Of a DNA stretch of 41,867 nucleotides, positions 1 to 41,834 are shown one piece after another. Under the pieces are notes generated by a model. The model had not been told where the DNA came from and made no database searches. It worked only from the letters and a program-made list of their open reading frames with translations. Source of the stretch: a virus (Duplodnaviria; Caudoviricetes); the IMG/VR virus record IMGVR_UViG_3300049170_000017, positions 1-41,867 of that record; one strand, 5' to 3'. Within the stretch, counting starts at the first letter, position 1. Each line of letters begins with the position of its first letter. A program made the position numbers and the translations under genes.

Positions 1-37
1 AATGTGCGGAGGGTTCAGTTCGTCCCAGACCGTCCCA

Positions 38-55
38 CGACTGCATAACTATGCA
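38..55. repeat. Left-end palindrome TGCATA-AC-TATGCA, putative packaging (cos-flanking) site
   Basis: CGACTGCATAACTATGCA; same core as the right-end palindrome at 41811-41834. Confidence 0.55.
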
Positions 56-97
56 CCGCGCAAGGCGGTGCTGACCACCGTTGACCGCGCAAGGCGG
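53..97 (+). promoter_or_regulatory. Tandem GCAAG-loop hairpins upstream of terS
   Basis: GCACCGC-GCAAG-GCGGTGC (53-71) and CCGC-GCAAG-GCGG (85-97). Confidence 0.6.
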
Positions 98-115
98 CCG
101 GAGGAGTGATCGAAC

Positions 116-589
116 ATGGCTCGAGGAGGAGCGCGTAACCGTTCTGGCCCGCCGGCTGACCCTAGTTCTGGCAGGTCCGACCGTCGAGGTTTCAAGCTCA
201 CTGCCCTGCCGGCTGAGGGTTATGACGGTCCGGTCCCTAACTTTCCCCTGCCGTCACCGTCTGACCGTGAGGTCGAGTTGTGGGGGCAGGCGTGGCGCAC
301 GCCGCAGGCTTGCGCGTGGTCGATGCCGTCGGAGTCCTGGCGCGCCCGCACGGTCGCGCTGTGGGTGCGGCTATCTGCCCGTTGTGAGGACCCTGAGGCG
401 CCCGCGTCCCTGCTCGCACAGCTGCACCGTTTCGCCGACCAGATCGGCATGACGACCGCAGGCTTGGCTGAGATGGGTTGGAAGGTCGCTGTCGACCAGG
501 TCGCTGCGAAGCGGGCCGACGTCGAGGATGATCCTCCGGCCCGTTCGTCGTCTCGTGACCGGCTCAAGGTTGCGGGCAGTGGCGGATGA
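116..589 (+). CDS. terS: Terminase small subunit
   Basis: First gene, GGAGGAG RBS; N-terminal RGGARNRSGP motif and LWxxxWRTPQAxAW typical of actinophage TerS. Confidence 0.85.
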   Translation: MARGGARNRSGPPADPSSGRSDRRGFKLTALPAEGYDGPVPNFPLPSPSDREVELWGQAWRTPQACAWSMPSESWRARTVALWVRLSARCEDPEAPASLLAQLHRFADQIGMTTAGLAEMGWKVAVDQVAAKRADVEDDPPARSSSRDRLKVAGSGG

Positions 590-2201
590 CGCGCTCGCGC
601 TCGACTTCGACCCGCTGCACACGCTCGGATTTCTGGTCACTGACTGGGTGGAGCAGCACTGCAAGGTGCCCGGCGGCGTCTACGAGGGCGAGCCGCTGAC
701 GTTCAACGGTTGGCAGCTCTACTGCACCGCCAACCATTACCGGATCACTCCGGACGCCGTACCGGACCCGCGGCGGCTGGTTGTCCCGTTCCACTACCGC
801 CGTTCGGTGGTCGTCGGGCCGCAGAAGTGCGGTAAGTCGCCCTGGGGTGCCGGGATGCTGCTCGCTGAGGGTGTCGGACCAACACTGTTCGCCGGGTGGG
901 CCAAAGGCGGCGAGGTGTACCGCTGTGAGGAGCACGGCTGCGGTTGCGGCTGGGAGTACCCCTACCAGCCTGGCGAGGCGATGGGCGCGGTACGGCGCAA
1001 ATCACTGTTGGGCCTCCTGGCTTACGCGGAGTCGCAGACGAACAACGTCTACGAGCCGTTGCAGACGATGATTCACTCCGGCCCGCTGGCCGAGTTCGTC
1101 CATGTCCGTGAGGGCTTCATCCGCTTGCCGAACCGCGGCAAGATCGTCCCGCTGTCGTCCGCTGCACGGTCGAAGCTGGGTCAGCCGCTCACGGGCGGCC
1201 TGGCGGACGAGTCGGGCCTTTACACGTCGTCCAACCGGGTGCTTGACACCTGGCAGACGATGCGGCGCGGTATCGCTGCCATGCAGGGTCGCACGATCGA
1301 GCTCACGAACCCGTGGGACCCGATGGAGAACAGTGCGGCGCAGCAGGCGTTCGAGTCGCGGCGGCGTGACATCTTCCGCTACTACCGCAAGCCGCCGGCG
1401 GATCTGTCCTATGGCAATAAGCGGGAGCGGCACAAGATCCACCTGTATGTCTATGCCGATTCTCCGTGGGTGGAGCCGACGTCAATTGACGCCGAGGCTG
1501 CCGAGCTCGTGGAGACGGACCCGACGCAGGCGGAGCGGTTCTTCGGTAACCGTCTGGTGCAGGGCCTCGGCTCGTATATGCCGGAGCCGTTGTGGGACGA
1601 CACGATCGCTCCTGAGCCTTCTACGGATCGTCGGGTGTGCATCGGCTTCGACGGGTCCCGTTCGGGCGACTGGACGGCACTGCGGGTCGAGACTTCCGAC
1701 GGCTACAGGTTCACGCCCACCTACGGACCTGATGACCGGCCGACGTTCTGGAACCCGGACGAGTGGGGCGGTCGCATTCCGCGTGGTGAGGTGAAGGCTG
1801 CGGTCGCGGAGCTGTTCGACCGCTACGACGTGGCTCGCATGTACGTCGACCCGAGGCACTGGGAGACGCAGGCAGACGAGTGGGCGCTGGAGCATGGCGA
1901 GGACGTCGTGGCGCAGTGGCCCACTAACCAGATCTCGCGCATGTACGGCGCTCTCGTGCGGTTCCTCGAGGACACGGCCGAGAGGTCGACTACCCACTCT
2001 GACGACCCGACGGCTAAGGCGCACGCGCTCGCTGCCCGGAAGATCGCCAAGTCGGGCGACCGCTACATCATCGGCAAACCGGCCGAGCACCAGAAGATCG
2101 ACATTCTCATGGCCGACATCCTCGCGCATGAGGCCGCTGCTGATATGCGCGCCGAGGGCTGGCTGACCCCTGTTGACAACCGTGTCGTTGTGTTCCGTTA
2201 G
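579..2201 (+). CDS. terL: Terminase large subunit
   Basis: Walker A GPQKCGKS, Walker B GLADESG, nuclease motif IGFDGSRSGDWT; GTG at 579 overlapping terS preferred to 528. Confidence 0.93.
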   Translation: MADDALALDFDPLHTLGFLVTDWVEQHCKVPGGVYEGEPLTFNGWQLYCTANHYRITPDAVPDPRRLVVPFHYRRSVVVGPQKCGKSPWGAGMLLAEGVGPTLFAGWAKGGEVYRCEEHGCGCGWEYPYQPGEAMGAVRRKSLLGLLAYAESQTNNVYEPLQTMIHSGPLAEFVHVREGFIRLPNRGKIVPLSSAARSKLGQPLTGGLADESGLYTSSNRVLDTWQTMRRGIAAMQGRTIELTNPWDPMENSAAQQAFESRRRDIFRYYRKPPADLSYGNKRERHKIHLYVYADSPWVEPTSIDAEAAELVETDPTQAERFFGNRLVQGLGSYMPEPLWDDTIAPEPSTDRRVCIGFDGSRSGDWTALRVETSDGYRFTPTYGPDDRPTFWNPDEWGGRIPRGEVKAAVAELFDRYDVARMYVDPRHWETQADEWALEHGEDVVAQWPTNQISRMYGALVRFLEDTAERSTTHSDDPTAKAHALAARKIAKSGDRYIIGKPAEHQKIDILMADILAHEAAADMRAEGWLTPVDNRVVVFR

Positions 2202-2212
2202 GAGGCTGGCCT

Positions 2213-3601
2213 GTGGCTGTTGCACCGCTGACCTCCGATGAGCTATCCCTGTTTCAGAGGCTTGAGACGCAGCTGACGTCCGCGCAGCACATCTTCGACC
2301 TGTGCGACGCCTACTACGACGGGGCGCAACGGCTCGAGCAGTTGGGCCTGGCGATCCCGCCGGAGCTGCAGCGGTTCACGGTCATCGTGAACTGGCCGCG
2401 GGTGGTCGTGGATGCGACCGCTGACCGGCTCGACGTCAAGGGTTTCCGCCTGCCTGGTGTTGACATCGGCGACGAGGAGCTGCTGCGGGTCTGGCGTGCG
2501 TCGCACATGGACGAGCAGGACCAGATGGCGAAGCTCGACTATCTCATCTATGGCCGCACGTACAAGTGTGTCGGCCCGAATGAGGCTGACGAGCGGTCGC
2601 CGCTCATCACGGTGGAGTCGCCCAGGTCGATCATCACGGACAGGGACTCTCGCACGGGTCGCGTGACGGCTGCTCTGCGGTTGTATGACGAGGTCAACGG
2701 GCGCAACACCAAGGGCACCCTGTACCTGCCAGACGAGACGATCTACCTTGACTCTGCGGACGGGCCGTGGAACGTCGCCGACCGTGACGAGCACGGCCTG
2801 GGTGTGGTCCCGGTGGTGCCGACGTTCCGCCGCCGGCGCACCCGCATCCCTGTGCACCGCACCTTGCAGGGTGTCTCGGCGATGGCTGATGTCATCCCGG
2901 TGACCGACGCCGCAGCACGGAACATCACGAACGCGCAGGTTGCGCAGGAGACGCACGCCGTCCCCGCTCGCGGCGTCCTCGGTGCCACCAAGGGCGACTT
3001 CGTCGACCAGACCGGCAAGCCACTCCCGCAGTGGGAGGCCTACTTCGGCTCCGTGTGGGCGCTGGGCAACCCGAACGCTAAGACGTTCCAGTTCGACTCC
3101 TCGGACATGGTCAACTTCGAGCGGATGATGGACCTGTACGCCCGGCTCGCGTCGGGTGTCTCGGCCCTTCCGCCCAACTACTTCGGCCTCGCCGCAGATG
3201 ACGCGGCGTCGGCTGACGCGATCCGGTCGCGGGAGGCCCGGCACGTCAAGGTCGCCGAGCGTGACCAGGTGGCCCTCGGTACCGGGGACGCGGAGACGCT
3301 GCGGATCGCCGCACGGATCCGCGACGGCGCCTGGGACGACAGCCTCGTGGGCCTGGAGACGTTGTGGTACGACGCTGGTACGCCGACGACCGCCCAGCGC
3401 GCCGATGCCGTGGTGAAGATGCACACGGCAACGGATGGCAACGGTGTCCCCCTGCTGCCCGCGGAGGCGGCCTATGAGGAGCTGGGTTACTCGCCTACGA
3501 AGATCAAGCGCCTCATGGAGATGCGCCGTCGTGAGATGGCGAACCCGTACCTGACTGCACAGGCTGATGGCCAGCGTCCAGCCGCTGCCCCAGTCGGCTA
3601 G
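2213..3601 (+). CDS. Portal protein (SPP1 gp6-like)
   Basis: 462 aa after terL; YYDG and VNWPRVVVD motifs; AGGAGG RBS. Confidence 0.92.
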   Translation: MAVAPLTSDELSLFQRLETQLTSAQHIFDLCDAYYDGAQRLEQLGLAIPPELQRFTVIVNWPRVVVDATADRLDVKGFRLPGVDIGDEELLRVWRASHMDEQDQMAKLDYLIYGRTYKCVGPNEADERSPLITVESPRSIITDRDSRTGRVTAALRLYDEVNGRNTKGTLYLPDETIYLDSADGPWNVADRDEHGLGVVPVVPTFRRRRTRIPVHRTLQGVSAMADVIPVTDAAARNITNAQVAQETHAVPARGVLGATKGDFVDQTGKPLPQWEAYFGSVWALGNPNAKTFQFDSSDMVNFERMMDLYARLASGVSALPPNYFGLAADDAASADAIRSREARHVKVAERDQVALGTGDAETLRIAARIRDGAWDDSLVGLETLWYDAGTPTTAQRADAVVKMHTATDGNGVPLLPAEAAYEELGYSPTKIKRLMEMRRREMANPYLTAQADGQRPAAAPVG

Positions 3602-4631
3602 CCGCTACCACGCGGCGCAGCGGCTGGAGATCGCGGCTGCCCTGTTCGAGATCCGTCGCCTATGGCGTCGGGTCAAGCCGACCGACCTGGACGGCTCGTG
3701 GCGCACGGCGGCCCCGCTCATCACGGCGGTCCTCCTGACGGCTCAGGAGCGCGTCTCGGTCCCCGTGGGCGGCTACGTGTCCGACGTGCTGTCAGAGACG
3801 GGCCAGGGACGTGCAGACGCCCCTTGGGCGACTCCGCTGCGCGCCCCGCTGGTCGGAACCGCGCCTGATGGTCAACCGCTCGGGGCGTGGCTTGCCACGA
3901 CACCTGTGACGGCACGGACCATGCTCGCTCGTGGTGCCGCACCCGCCACAGCGCACAAGGCCGCCGGCTCCTGGCTCAACCTCACCGCGTCGACCGTCCT
4001 GTCGGATACGGCACGGCAGACCGAGGCGCTGCACACCGGCGTCCGACCCGTGAGCGGCTACGTGCGGATGCTAAACCCGCCCTCCTGCTCCCGCTGCGCC
4101 GTCCTGGCTGGCAAGTGGTACCGCAAGAACCAGGGTTTCTTGCGCCACCCTGGCTGCGACTGTCGGCACATACCGGCCAGCGAGGCGGTCGGCGACGACC
4201 TGCGCCTCGACCCGCAGCTCTACTTCGACTCCCTGCCCACCACGGCCGAGCTGCATGAGCGGTACCCCGGCCGGACCCTGCACGACCTCCGCGCCGAGGG
4301 CATCGTCTCCCAGGAGTCGGTGTTCACCAACGCCGGCGCTCAGGTGATCCGCGAGGGCGCCGACCCACTCCAGGTGGTTAATGCCCGCCGTGGCATGACC
4401 ACCGCGCAGCAGAACCTCCGCGGGTGGACCCCGCAAGGCCGCCTCGCGCCTGTCGACCGCTACGGCCGCCAGGTCTACGAGACGAAGGAGGGCGTCACCG
4501 AGCGCGGGCTGGCTTCTCGCACCCGCACCAAGCGCCGCGGTGAGCGCCTGATGCCCGAGTCCATCTTGCAGATCGCGGAGAACCGCGACGACCTGCAGCG
4601 CCTCCTGCGCCTGCACGGCTACATCCGCTGA
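3567..4631 (+). CDS. MuF-like minor head / capsid maturation protein
   Basis: Between portal and scaffold; CSRC...HPGCDCRH motif. Confidence 0.7.
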   Translation: MASVQPLPQSASRYHAAQRLEIAAALFEIRRLWRRVKPTDLDGSWRTAAPLITAVLLTAQERVSVPVGGYVSDVLSETGQGRADAPWATPLRAPLVGTAPDGQPLGAWLATTPVTARTMLARGAAPATAHKAAGSWLNLTASTVLSDTARQTEALHTGVRPVSGYVRMLNPPSCSRCAVLAGKWYRKNQGFLRHPGCDCRHIPASEAVGDDLRLDPQLYFDSLPTTAELHERYPGRTLHDLRAEGIVSQESVFTNAGAQVIREGADPLQVVNARRGMTTAQQNLRGWTPQGRLAPVDRYGRQVYETKEGVTERGLASRTRTKRRGERLMPESILQIAENRDDLQRLLRLHGYIR

Positions 4632-4635
4632 CCAC

Positions 4636-4672
4636 CCCGGCGCAAGGTCGGGACCGACTCTCGCAAGGAGAG
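4636..4672 (+). promoter_or_regulatory. Tandem GCAAG-loop hairpins, second one overlapping the scaffold RBS
   Basis: CCCGGC-GCAAG-GTCGGG (4636-4652) and CTCTC-GCAAG-GAGAG (4658-4672). Confidence 0.6.
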
Positions 4673-4678
4673 CACCGC

Positions 4679-5281
4679 ATGTCCGCACGCATGACACAGG
4701 CCGTGGCCGAGGCTGCTGCCGAGGCCGACGCTGTCGACGAGCTCATGGCCGACAACCCGGCCCCCAGCACCGACGACACCACCGAGGACGACGACGACAC
4801 CGACGACGCCGACCCGGACGGCTCCGACGAGCTCGGCGACAAGGGCAAGCAGGCCCTCGCCCGCATGAAGGAGAAGCTGCGCGAGGAGCGTCGCAAGCGC
4901 ATCGCCGCCGAGGCCGCGCGTGACGCCACGGACCCCGACGAGACGGCCAGGGCCACCCGTGAGGCAGAGCGCGCCGCGCTCGCCAAGGCTAACGGGCGCA
5001 TCGTCCGCGCAGAGATCAAGGCAGCGGCCAAGGGAGTCCTCCACGACCCCGCCGACGCCTTCACATTCATCGACCCGACCGAGTTCGAGGTCGACGACAA
5101 CGGCGAGGTGGACGCCGACGAGATCGCATCCGCGATCGCCGATCTGGTGACACGCAAGCCGTACCTAGCCGCGCAAGGCGGCCCGAAGGGACCCCGGCCA
5201 GACCGCTCGCAAGGAGCGTCGACCACTGGGACCGCCACGACAGCGCAGCAGTTCGCCGCGCTGGCAGATAACTACCTCTGA
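4679..5281 (+). CDS. Capsid scaffolding protein
   Basis: Acidic N-terminus, LGDKGKQAL coiled coil, KPYLAA, directly upstream of MCP. Confidence 0.85.
   Translation: MSARMTQAVAEAAAEADAVDELMADNPAPSTDDTTEDDDDTDDADPDGSDELGDKGKQALARMKEKLREERRKRIAAEAARDATDPDETARATREAERAALAKANGRIVRAEIKAAAKGVLHDPADAFTFIDPTEFEVDDNGEVDADEIASAIADLVTRKPYLAAQGGPKGPRPDRSQGASTTGTATTAQQFAALADNYL
5168..5218 (+). promoter_or_regulatory. Tandem GCAAG-loop hairpins in the scaffold 3' end, upstream of MCP
   Basis: GCCGC-GCAAG-GCGGC (5168-5182) and CGCTC-GCAAG-GAGCG (5204-5218). Confidence 0.55.
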
Positions 5282-5324
5282 CCCCTTGCCGTAGCGCGGC
5301 AGGGACAACGAAAGGAGGCCGGTC

Positions 5325-6224
5325 ATGGCCGGCATCGACATCAACCGCACTACGGCGGGCGTGAGCCTGCCTCCTGCCGTCGCCGACGAGATCTGGGGCG
5401 CGACCTCGGAGTCCTCGGCCGCTATGCAGCTCGCTGGGCAGATTCCGCTCCCCGGCGCTGGTGTGTCCGTGGACATCATCACGGGCAACGCCGAGGCTGA
5501 GTGGGTGGCTGAGACGGACGAGAAGCCCGTCAGCCGCCCGACGATGGGCAGCAAGCTGATGACGCCCTACACCCTGGCCGTCATCGTGCCCTTCTCCAAC
5601 CAGTTCCGCCGCGACAAGGCCCGTCTGTACCAGGCCCTCGTGAACAAGCTGCCGGAGGCGCTGGCTCTCAAGTTCGACCGCACCGTGTTCGGTGACGTCG
5701 CTGCGCCGGGGTCGAACTTCGACACCCTGCAGGGTGCCGCTGCTGTCGGGATTGCTGGCGACACCTACGCGGGCCTCGTGGCCGCGGACCAGGCTGTCGC
5801 CACTGGCGGTGGCCTGCTCAACGGGTGGGCCGTCTCGCCGCAGGGTCGCGGGCTGCTGCTGGGTGCGGTGGACGGCTTCGGCCGGCCGCTGTTCACGGCT
5901 AGCCCGAACACTGGTGGGTCCGTCTCCCAGCTGCTCGGCCAGCCCGTCTACATGACCCGCGGCGTGTACCTCGCGGACGCGGACGGCGCTGGTACTGGCA
6001 CCGACGCCCAGCTTGGTTTCGCTGGCGACTGGTCGGGCGCGGCGTGGGGTTCGGTCGAGGGCGTGCAGATCGCGTTCTCCGACCAGGCCACTCTGACGGA
6101 TGGTGGCACCACCATCAACCTGTTCCAGCGGAACATGTTTGCGGTGCGCGCTGAGATCGAGGTGGGCTTCCGGGTCCGCGACCTCGACCAGTTCGTCAAG
6201 CTCACCAGCGCCACGCAGGCCTGA
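5325..6224 (+). CDS. Major capsid protein (HK97 fold)
   Basis: AEWVAETDEKP, LAVIVPFS, GRPLF, NLFQRNMFAVRAE; AAAGGAGG RBS. Confidence 0.95.
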   Translation: MAGIDINRTTAGVSLPPAVADEIWGATSESSAAMQLAGQIPLPGAGVSVDIITGNAEAEWVAETDEKPVSRPTMGSKLMTPYTLAVIVPFSNQFRRDKARLYQALVNKLPEALALKFDRTVFGDVAAPGSNFDTLQGAAAVGIAGDTYAGLVAADQAVATGGGLLNGWAVSPQGRGLLLGAVDGFGRPLFTASPNTGGSVSQLLGQPVYMTRGVYLADADGAGTGTDAQLGFAGDWSGAAWGSVEGVQIAFSDQATLTDGGTTINLFQRNMFAVRAEIEVGFRVRDLDQFVKLTSATQA

Positions 6225-6226
6225 GC

Positions 6227-6385
6227 ATGGCGACCTTCAAGGCCCCTTACGGGGTTGGGACGGTGACCGTGCCTGACGACCGGGCCGACAGGTACCGGCA
6301 GGCAGGCTGGGTCGAGGAGAAGCCGGCGCCGAAGCGGCGTTCGGCCACGAAGGATGACAAGGACTCGCCCAAGGGCGAGGGCTGA
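6227..6385 (+). CDS. Small protein, 52 aa (MATFKAPYG...), typical post-capsid gene
   Basis: Fills the MCP-adaptor gap; read from sequence, below ORF-track cutoff. Confidence 0.7.
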   Translation: MATFKAPYGVGTVTVPDDRADRYRQAGWVEEKPAPKRRSATKDDKDSPKGEG

Positions 6386-6406
6386 CCGGACGGAGGTGGG
6401 GCGGTC

Positions 6407-6832
6407 ATGGCTTACGCGACCGTTTCTGACGTGAGCACGCGGCTGGGCCGCCCCATCTCCGACCCCGCTGAGATAGCGCAGGTCGAGGCGTGGATCGGTG
6501 ACGTCGAGGGCATGATCCTCGACCGCATCCCCGACCTCGCCGTCTACATCGCTGAGGGTCGCCCCACGTTGGCGACCGTGGCGGCCGTGGTGGCGAACGC
6601 CGTCATCCGCAAGGTGCGGAACCCTGACGGCAAGGTGCAAGAAGGCGTTGACGACTACAACTACCGACTCAATGAGAACGCCCGCCGTGGCGAGCTGTTC
6701 TTGACCGACGAGGAGTGGGCGCTACTGGCTCCTGTCGGTGGGGTCGGGGCGTTCACTATCCGTCCTTACGGTGCCTTCGCGTACAGCCGTGGCGAGTGGG
6801 TGCACCCCGATGTGTGGGTGCCACTGCCATGA
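6407..6832 (+). CDS. Head-to-tail adaptor
   Basis: MAYATVSDV..RLGR, VRNPDG, LFLTDEEWALL; position. Confidence 0.85.
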   Translation: MAYATVSDVSTRLGRPISDPAEIAQVEAWIGDVEGMILDRIPDLAVYIAEGRPTLATVAAVVANAVIRKVRNPDGKVQEGVDDYNYRLNENARRGELFLTDEEWALLAPVGGVGAFTIRPYGAFAYSRGEWVHPDVWVPLP

Positions 6833-41498: not shown

Positions 41499-41822
41499 AT
41501 GGCGCGCAGGTGCCTCGACTGCCCCGCCCTCGGAGACTGGACCCGCGGACGCTGCCCCACCCACGACCGGGCACGGGACCGGGCACGTGGCACCCGGCAG
41601 GCACGAGGGTACGACGCCACCCACGACCGTCTCCGCGCTCGCTACCAAGAGCGCATGAACGCCGGCGAGCTGTTCACCTGCTGGCGGCCCGAGTGCGGCA
41701 AGCCCATCGACCCGACGCGTTGGCATCTCGGACACGACGACAACGACCGATCGAAGTATCGCGGCCCCGAGTGCGTCGCGTGCAACACCGCGACAGCTTC
41801 GCGGCGAACTTCGACTGCATAA
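41499..41822 (+). CDS. Terminal HNH endonuclease (terminase-associated type)
   Basis: RCPTH, RGY, CWRPEC, WHLGH, CVACN; last gene; AGGAGG RBS. Confidence 0.85.
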   Translation: MARRCLDCPALGDWTRGRCPTHDRARDRARGTRQARGYDATHDRLRARYQERMNAGELFTCWRPECGKPIDPTRWHLGHDDNDRSKYRGPECVACNTATASRRTSTA

Positions 41823-41834
41823 GTATGCAGTCGA
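41811..41834. repeat. Right-end palindrome TCGACTGCATA-AG-TATGCAGTCGA
   Basis: Perfect 11-bp inverted repeat; core shared with 38-55. Confidence 0.65.

Follow-up and report, generated by a model that had tools for sequence, protein, structure and literature searches.

Paired GNRA-plus-one hairpins in the small-terminase and scaffold leaders of actinophages as candidate operators for the scaffolding protein

In a 41,867-nucleotide viral sequence (Duplodnaviria; Caudoviricetes; IMG/VR record IMGVR_UViG_3300049170_000017, positions 1 to 41,867; this whole stretch is called the window below), the genes for the small terminase (terS) and the head scaffolding protein are each preceded by a pair of short hairpins whose five-base loops resemble a GNRA tetraloop with one added base. 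Judged by comparison of sequences, these twin leader hairpins are a real and widespread RNA element of actinophages. Their best-fitting reader is likely the scaffolding protein, for which there is a strong comparative case, and we consider it probable that they act as translational operators to which free scaffold would bind, blocking the starts of both scaffold and terS.

Six hairpins with differing stems around the loop GCAAG had been described in the original prediction, which was made from the window alone, and all six were located, with stems of four to seven pairs:

53..71, + strand: terS leader hairpin 1, 7-base-pair stem, GCAAG loop at 60-64; seen in the sequence and conserved near -53 in relatives
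85..97, + strand: terS leader hairpin 2, 4-base-pair stem, loop at 89-93; ends 3 nucleotides before the Shine-Dalgarno sequence
100..106, + strand: terS Shine-Dalgarno sequence GGAGGAG, outside the stem; seen in the sequence
4636..4652, + strand: scaffold leader hairpin 1, 6-base-pair stem with one G-U pair; 4 nucleotides past the MuF/protease stop
4658..4672, + strand: scaffold leader hairpin 2, 5 pairs, 3' arm formed by the Shine-Dalgarno sequence; from sequence and fold
5168..5182, + strand: internal hairpin 1 in the scaffold coding sequence, 5 pairs; Ala-Gln-Gly with a CAA codon
5204..5218, + strand: internal hairpin 2 in the scaffold coding sequence, 5 pairs; Ser-Gln-Gly with a CAA codon

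The GCAAG loops start at 60, 89, 4642, 4663, 5173 and 5209, on stems of 7, 4, 6, 5, 5 and 5 pairs, respectively. No other C-GCAAN-G hairpin with at least four Watson-Crick pairs is present on either strand of the window; 500 codon-resampled genomes, a null built on an approximate, script-made gene set, averaged 0.15 such hairpins and never had more than 2. In the same null, the chance of one internal scaffold site was 0.008, and that of two was 0/500. The burial of the scaffold Shine-Dalgarno sequence, also foreseen, was borne out by folding: AGGAGAG (4666-4672) lies within the 3' arm of 4658-4672, and its last five bases are paired with a probability of about 0.99. The unusual choice of CAA for Gln at both internal sites was likewise confirmed, the remaining four Gln codons of the scaffold gene all being CAG and the six head genes together using CAA 5 times and CAG 74 times.

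To place the element in related phages, loci were gathered through their capsid and TerL proteins, a collection that is blind to the hairpins. It comprised 115 loci, of which 74 combined a terS leader with a scaffold, leaving 61 once near-identical TerL proteins were dropped. GNRAN-loop hairpins are present in 54/61 terS leaders and 56/61 scaffold leaders, compared with 4/61 portal leaders, 4/61 terL leaders, 3/61 sites after the scaffold stop and 3.2/61 random portal windows, in agreement with the positional conservation that had been predicted. The two loops are spaced 20-30 nucleotides apart at terS and 20-32 at scaffold, and in all 50 two-hairpin terS leaders the loop of hairpin 2 lies between -31 and -22 relative to the start codon; the beginning of the Shine-Dalgarno sequence falls within stem 2 in 35/45 scaffold leaders. 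With loop word and position as the sole criteria for choosing hairpins, pair 3 of terS hairpin 1 could form in 52/54 cases (27.3 in shuffles) and pair 2 of scaffold hairpin 1 in 53/53 (26.6 in shuffles), a comparison whose force is lessened because the shuffles take no account of relatedness. G-U combinations outnumber A-C in the terS hairpins (53:7 and 18:6). Conservation and stem compensation uphold the proposal that the leaders of terS and scaffold contain an element of control at the RNA level. Hairpins occur at both leaders in the cultured phages Kromp and AGM1.

When viral sequences were scanned for exact matches to the hairpin holding the scaffold Shine-Dalgarno sequence, 119 loci were returned; most of the high-G+C matches stand in scaffold leaders and have a second hairpin 20-33 nucleotides upstream, and the lower-G+C matches are unrelated. 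Among the latter, the same 15-mer hairpin stands in a fixed context in small contigs of 33-37% G+C (loci L094, L115, L123, L126, L130 and others) with no scaffold gene downstream, and is an unrelated element. A scan for the G-loop version of this hairpin gave 4 matches, 0 of them preceding a scaffold gene, and was uninformative. At first the hairpins were taken to be absent from phages of the other scaffold type, a view that proved wrong when G-loop versions were found there.

Similar hairpins recur within scaffold coding sequences. A GCAAN hairpin is found in the last 230 nucleotides of 49/56 GP20-type scaffolds versus 1/100 other scaffolds; by reading frame these internal hairpins number 51, 15 and 2, and the Gln that follows the PYL motif is encoded by CAA in 39/45 cases, compared with 57/342 elsewhere. 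Their occurrence in all three frames, together with the CAA preference, shows that selection acts at the nucleic-acid level. The internal pair of the window lies 152 and 116 nucleotides before the capsid ATG, the distance to the scaffold stop varies among relatives, and the internal hairpin is often single there. Owing to this variable distance and the frequent single copies, the internal hairpins do not appear to gate the capsid start. The claim that the hairpins always come in pairs therefore holds for the three sites in the window and only loosely for the internal copies of relatives; similarly, the idea that the pairs mark terS, scaffold and capsid stands for the first two genes and not for capsid, whose upstream region, after the scaffold stop, is at background level. 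As guesses, the internal copies might be extra binding sites or might protect the capsid message.

The loop itself follows the general form G-N-R-A-B: among 116 G-starting pentaloops of terS leaders, base 4 is A in 100, and base 5 is T in 51, G in 35, C in 29 and A in 1. Leaving out 3 mixed loci and 11 that miss one of the two classes from the 61, the loop class at terS is the same as that at the scaffold leader in 46/47 loci whose class is pure at each of the two leaders; the terS loop lies 4.5 kb from the scaffold gene. Nearest neighbours in the scaffold protein predict the terS loop in 53/53 cases, compared with 41/44 for capsid, 33/53 for TerS, 33/53 for TerL, 18/26 for HNH and 9/24 for MuF. 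On protein trees, loop class changes 2 times for scaffold, 4 for portal, 6 for capsid, 13 for TerS and 13 for TerL, where shuffled classes give 13-15 changes. Phages with GCAA loops form a single scaffold clade (SH-like approximate likelihood ratio test, SH-aLRT, 99) and fall into two portal groups, one nested among GCGA phages; the closest TerL relatives of the window (83-85% identical) have GCGA loops. TerS, TerL, MuF and HNH were rejected as readers for their poor prediction of the terS loop. From the list of binders first suggested (scaffold, TerS or a late regulator), scaffold fits best and TerS poorly. The paired placement, the recurrence in dozens of relatives and a loop letter that changes with the scaffold together indicate that unused scaffold likely binds the hairpins.

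Further loop classes accompany other scaffold N-terminal segments. GAGAN and GGGAT loops were observed in L217, L274, L296 (Nyceirae), L295 and L298 (Isolde, Persistence), and twin hairpins with GCAC loops in the scaffold leaders of L024, L026, L027, L031 and L070, whose scaffolds have another N-terminal helix family. Several of the low-G+C loci L035-L061 carry a third scaffold N-terminal family, and their leaders share a hairpin, CTCGTGCC...AAAACGAG, after which ACTC...GGAG spans the Shine-Dalgarno sequence; those of these leaders that were scanned gave no Rfam match.

A candidate specificity residue lies in a predicted basic helix of the scaffold. The genes concerned and the helix are located as follows:

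116..589, + strand: small terminase gene terS; PHROG 226 match, with AGM1 and Kromp homologues annotated as terminase small subunit
4679..5281, + strand: head scaffolding protein gene with a GP20/PF06810-type C-domain, the putative reader; PHROG 4708, E=2e-38
4823..4930, + strand: codons of the predicted basic helix, scaffold residues 49-84; helix prediction, K64 codon at 4868-4870
5325..6224, + strand: major capsid protein gene, the putative sink for scaffold; without a GNRAN hairpin at its own start

Residues 51-82, predicted to be helical, contain 11 K+R and 7 D+E. The helix ending A-L-x-x-M-K accompanies GCAA loops and A-L-x-x-E-R accompanies GCGA loops (13/0/0/32, p=1.4e-11, with 16/61 loci outside the table). 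Helix type and loop type each change 11 times on the TerL tree, and independent pairs agree in 7/7 cases (p=0.016). The candidate position, K64 in the window, lies within the predicted helix 49-84 and covaries with loop base 3: in unbiased rows Lys goes with A in 16 and Arg with G in 40, with 0 exceptions (56/56), and helices ending in M-K, F-K, I-K, E-K and T-K all accompany A. At locus L459, where a C-domain of the window type is combined with I-R in the helix, both leaders have G loops; it is the one GP20-type/G locus in a new TerL-selected set that otherwise held other-type/G 8, GP20-type/A 2 and none 4. A scaffold-profile search of 401 genomes gave 8 matches: three prophages with the helix and a readable leader, which obey the rule at both leaders, one match cut off by the contig end, and the four weakest, without such a helix. 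At position 64, Lys would recognise an A as the third loop base, and Arg a G.

The mechanism that we regard as probable would work as follows. Free scaffold would bind the leader hairpins, probably through its basic N-terminal helix, and would keep ribosomes from loading at the start codons of scaffold and terS. With ample capsid protein, scaffold would be drawn into procapsids, the operators would be vacated, and scaffold and terminase would be made; surplus scaffold, arising when capsid is short or when scaffold is released during packaging, would shut down the synthesis of both. Terminase would then follow procapsid supply, since surplus scaffold would close both leaders, and TerL, whose probable start overlaps the end of terS, would follow terS by coupling.

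Several observations weigh against scaffold as a repressor of both genes. The sign of control at terS is a guess and the weakest step, because the Shine-Dalgarno sequence stands beside the stem (stem 2 contains its beginning in just 2/50 terS leaders) and because forcing the terS hairpins to form leaves its predicted access neutral (19 easier, 16 harder, n=50). The terS pair is also optional, being missing in 7/61 loci and in Dubu and phiSASD1. Folding-energy z-scores are unremarkable (-1.16, -0.51 and -0.06), the terS hairpins of the window fold at 0.68/0.59 or at 0.02/0.003 depending on the stretch folded (the median in relatives is 0.96/0.87), and the excess of G-U over A-C is weak in the scaffold hairpins (25:17 and 7:7). 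As to the reader, portal nearest neighbours predict the terS loop nearly as well as scaffold does (51/52). The Lys/Arg difference is confounded with the type of scaffold C-domain, L459 being the sole locus that separates the two, and the loop is predicted better from the last 95 residues of the scaffold (53/53) than from the helix by itself (48/50). A different helix family has mixed loops, both with GP20-type C-domains (A 5, mixed 4, G 1, none 2) and with the other type (mixed 2, G 1, none 1), and in L237 and L279 the leaders disagree, with G loops at terS and an A loop at scaffold.

Some of these points would suit an unlikely alternative, in which scaffold reads the hairpins to localise or activate: the mRNA would be a platform keeping scaffold close to where TerS, scaffold and capsid are made, or bound scaffold would shield the capsid message against decay from the 5' side. 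All of the evidence that couples loop to scaffold fits it, as do the unburied terS Shine-Dalgarno sequence and the internal copies, which lie far from start codons and are selected in three frames; the Shine-Dalgarno sequence beginning inside stem 2 of most scaffold leaders is the geometry of repression, and the internal copies differ widely in distance from the scaffold stop. That portal, alone or in a complex with scaffold, is the reader seems improbable. The near-complete prediction of terS loops and the 4 tree changes (15 when shuffled) would agree with it, yet GCAA phages occupy two portal groups and one scaffold clade, the portal start itself is at control level for hairpins, and co-inheritance of portal with scaffold would be expected from the contact between these proteins, as the available part of the P22 source indicates (PMC5529062). 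We give only a slim chance to a scheme without any protein reader, where stable GNRA-like caps hold translation at fixed rates or dock into RNA receptors: a loop of GNRA plus one base suits it, and hairpin 2 by itself would reduce scaffold initiation, but it leaves unaccounted for both the agreement of the terS and scaffold-leader loops and the switching of terS loop base 3, on 11 branches, with a gene 4.5 kb away.

The original prediction had also offered antitermination. Such a role, in which the hairpins would be boxB/N-like or put-like elements of the late RNA recognised by a factor from phage or host, now appears very improbable. The hairpins are paired pentaloops, one pair is near the left genome end, and there is an unexplained stem past the scaffold stop (5284-5304); against this, a fourth loop base that is nearly always A and a fifth that almost never is differ from the P22 boxB loop GACAA given in the accessible portion of PMC12550061. 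A search of window positions 1-6500 with a boxA consensus found no boxA-like word, and in the same range no terminator-like site was found on the + strand by a scan that can miss actinobacterial terminators. Hairpin position is fixed relative to start codons, and sites tied to start codons in this way point to translation and not to antitermination. DNA-level sites near the genome end, such as packaging signals or palindromic operators, are hardly probable: the first pair does lie less than 100 bases from the left end, but the arms change without loss of pairing, the coding strand tolerates G-U, and the same motif, spaced to a start codon, occurs 4.5 kb inside.

Control of this kind has several precedents. 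The coat protein of MS2, an RNA phage, binds a hairpin in which the ribosome-binding site is contained, and this single operator doubles as a packaging signal; a structural protein on such a hairpin resembles what is proposed here, and protein and loop are unrelated. CsrA/RsmA sites present ANGGA in a loop, and a reading of the present hairpins as such sites was rejected, since AAGGA occurs in only 2/6 window hairpins and loop base 5 is variable. The boxB loop of lambda is GAARA. According to the portion of PMC12550061 at hand, boxB hairpins are bound by the N peptides of lambda, P22 and phi21, and phage-specific loop variants are matched to a cognate basic peptide. The GNRA-like pentaloop on a short stem is shared, and the putative match of loop variant to basic scaffold helix would resemble the boxB case, the difference being that the extra base is here predicted after the A (GNRA-B) and not inside the GNRA.

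The closest relatives are the GP20-a (RF02991) and GP20-b (RF03003) leader RNAs, which, with six further candidate RNAs, precede GP20 genes (Fremin et al. 2023, PMC10690425, as far as its available text goes). Like the scaffold pair here, and the scaffold pair only, they are structured leaders placed in cis directly before GP20-family scaffold genes, and GP20-b has two hairpins with the letters GCRAC in its second loop. They are set apart by loop size for GP20-b, whose loops are of 10 and 8 nucleotides compared with 5 here, and by model score for GP20-a. No Rfam family matched the window; GP20-a and GP20-b gave no match there at the gathering threshold, at E<=10 in 1-6500 or in a single-family search, and GP20-a none in 121 sampled genomes. 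The GP20-b model does match the scaffold leader of locus L060 at 48.2 bits, which indicates that the model works. In the accessible sections of PMC10690425, the named hosts of the GP20 candidate RNAs are Firmicutes or unassigned (the present motif is found in actinophages), GP20 is called a gene of unknown function, and no reader, terS copy or coding-region copy is proposed. The earlier statement that no family had been described thus stands with regard to Rfam matches and falls short with regard to these leader RNAs. A description of the motif itself was not found in the literature searched, mostly open-access, and PMC5737381, PMC6316719 and PMC2115188, as far as consulted, had nothing to contribute; a catalogued candidate may be present in the supplements of PMC5737381 and PMC10690425.

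In P22, scaffold (gp8) present in surplus reduces its own production in the absence of coat protein, and the N-terminus of the scaffold is implicated in this autoregulation, as far as the consulted parts of PMC5529062 and 10.1101/2022.12.13.520362 indicate. The analogy drawn in the original prediction is supported insofar as the control logic would be the same. The scaffold family differs: PF06810 is matched by 60/86 aligned scaffold homologues (E<=0.001), the window scaffold itself being unmatched, and a Pfam scan of the 86 members gave otherwise three single chance-level matches. The same parts of both sources describe no hairpin operator, terminase control or loop code for gp8.

More tentatively, these comparisons can be drawn together into a possible wider role of scaffolds as sequence-specific RNA-binding regulators of a head-assembly regulon, in which free scaffold would sense the supply of procapsids and gate itself and terminase through the twin GNRA-B hairpins, a code of Lys for A and Arg for G would operate, each N-terminal family would have its own loop, the orphan GP20-a/b leaders would have such a reader and P22-type autoregulation such an operator. 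If this is true, orphan scaffold-leader RNAs including GP20-a/b gain a reader, P22-type autoregulation gains a concrete operator, and control of terS would newly tie procapsid supply to DNA packaging. The joining of P22 autoregulation and the orphan GP20-leader RNAs to a defined operator is the new part, and no such joining was met in the literature examined. Direct testing is possible in cultured phages, as the element offers a compact RNA site together with a candidate reader, a putative specificity residue and variants swapped in nature; orthogonal hairpin-helix pairs could serve as translational switches in actinobacteria.

The window record represents a phage of 41.9 kb and 68% G+C. Its left end carries terS, terL, portal, MuF/protease, scaffold and capsid in this order, with an HNH gene at the other end of the record, and its head genes are similar to those of the actinobacterial phages Dubu, phiSASD1, AGM1 and Kromp. 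A structure search with a model of the scaffold gave zero matches at E<=0.001, and single-protein scans of viral contigs with the scaffold gave none. The sole PHROG match of terS, phrog_226, is labelled 'minor tail protein', a label also found in the RefSeq records of Dubu, Isolde and Persistence; by position and by the other annotations, 116-589 is nonetheless assigned as the small terminase. The stem at 5284-5304 has 9 base pairs, directly follows the scaffold stop upstream of the capsid Shine-Dalgarno sequence, and is without a U tract. Each genome end has nearby a copy of the DNA palindrome TGCATAA-C/G-TATGCA (42-55 and 41811-41834, the right copy with arms of 11 base pairs); it precedes terS in only 2/61 loci and is possibly a terminase or regulator site. 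Finally, GGAGGGTTCA occurs at 8-17 near the left end, where it is possibly part of a packaging site or late promoter, and GGTTCA is found upstream of terS in 36/61 relatives.

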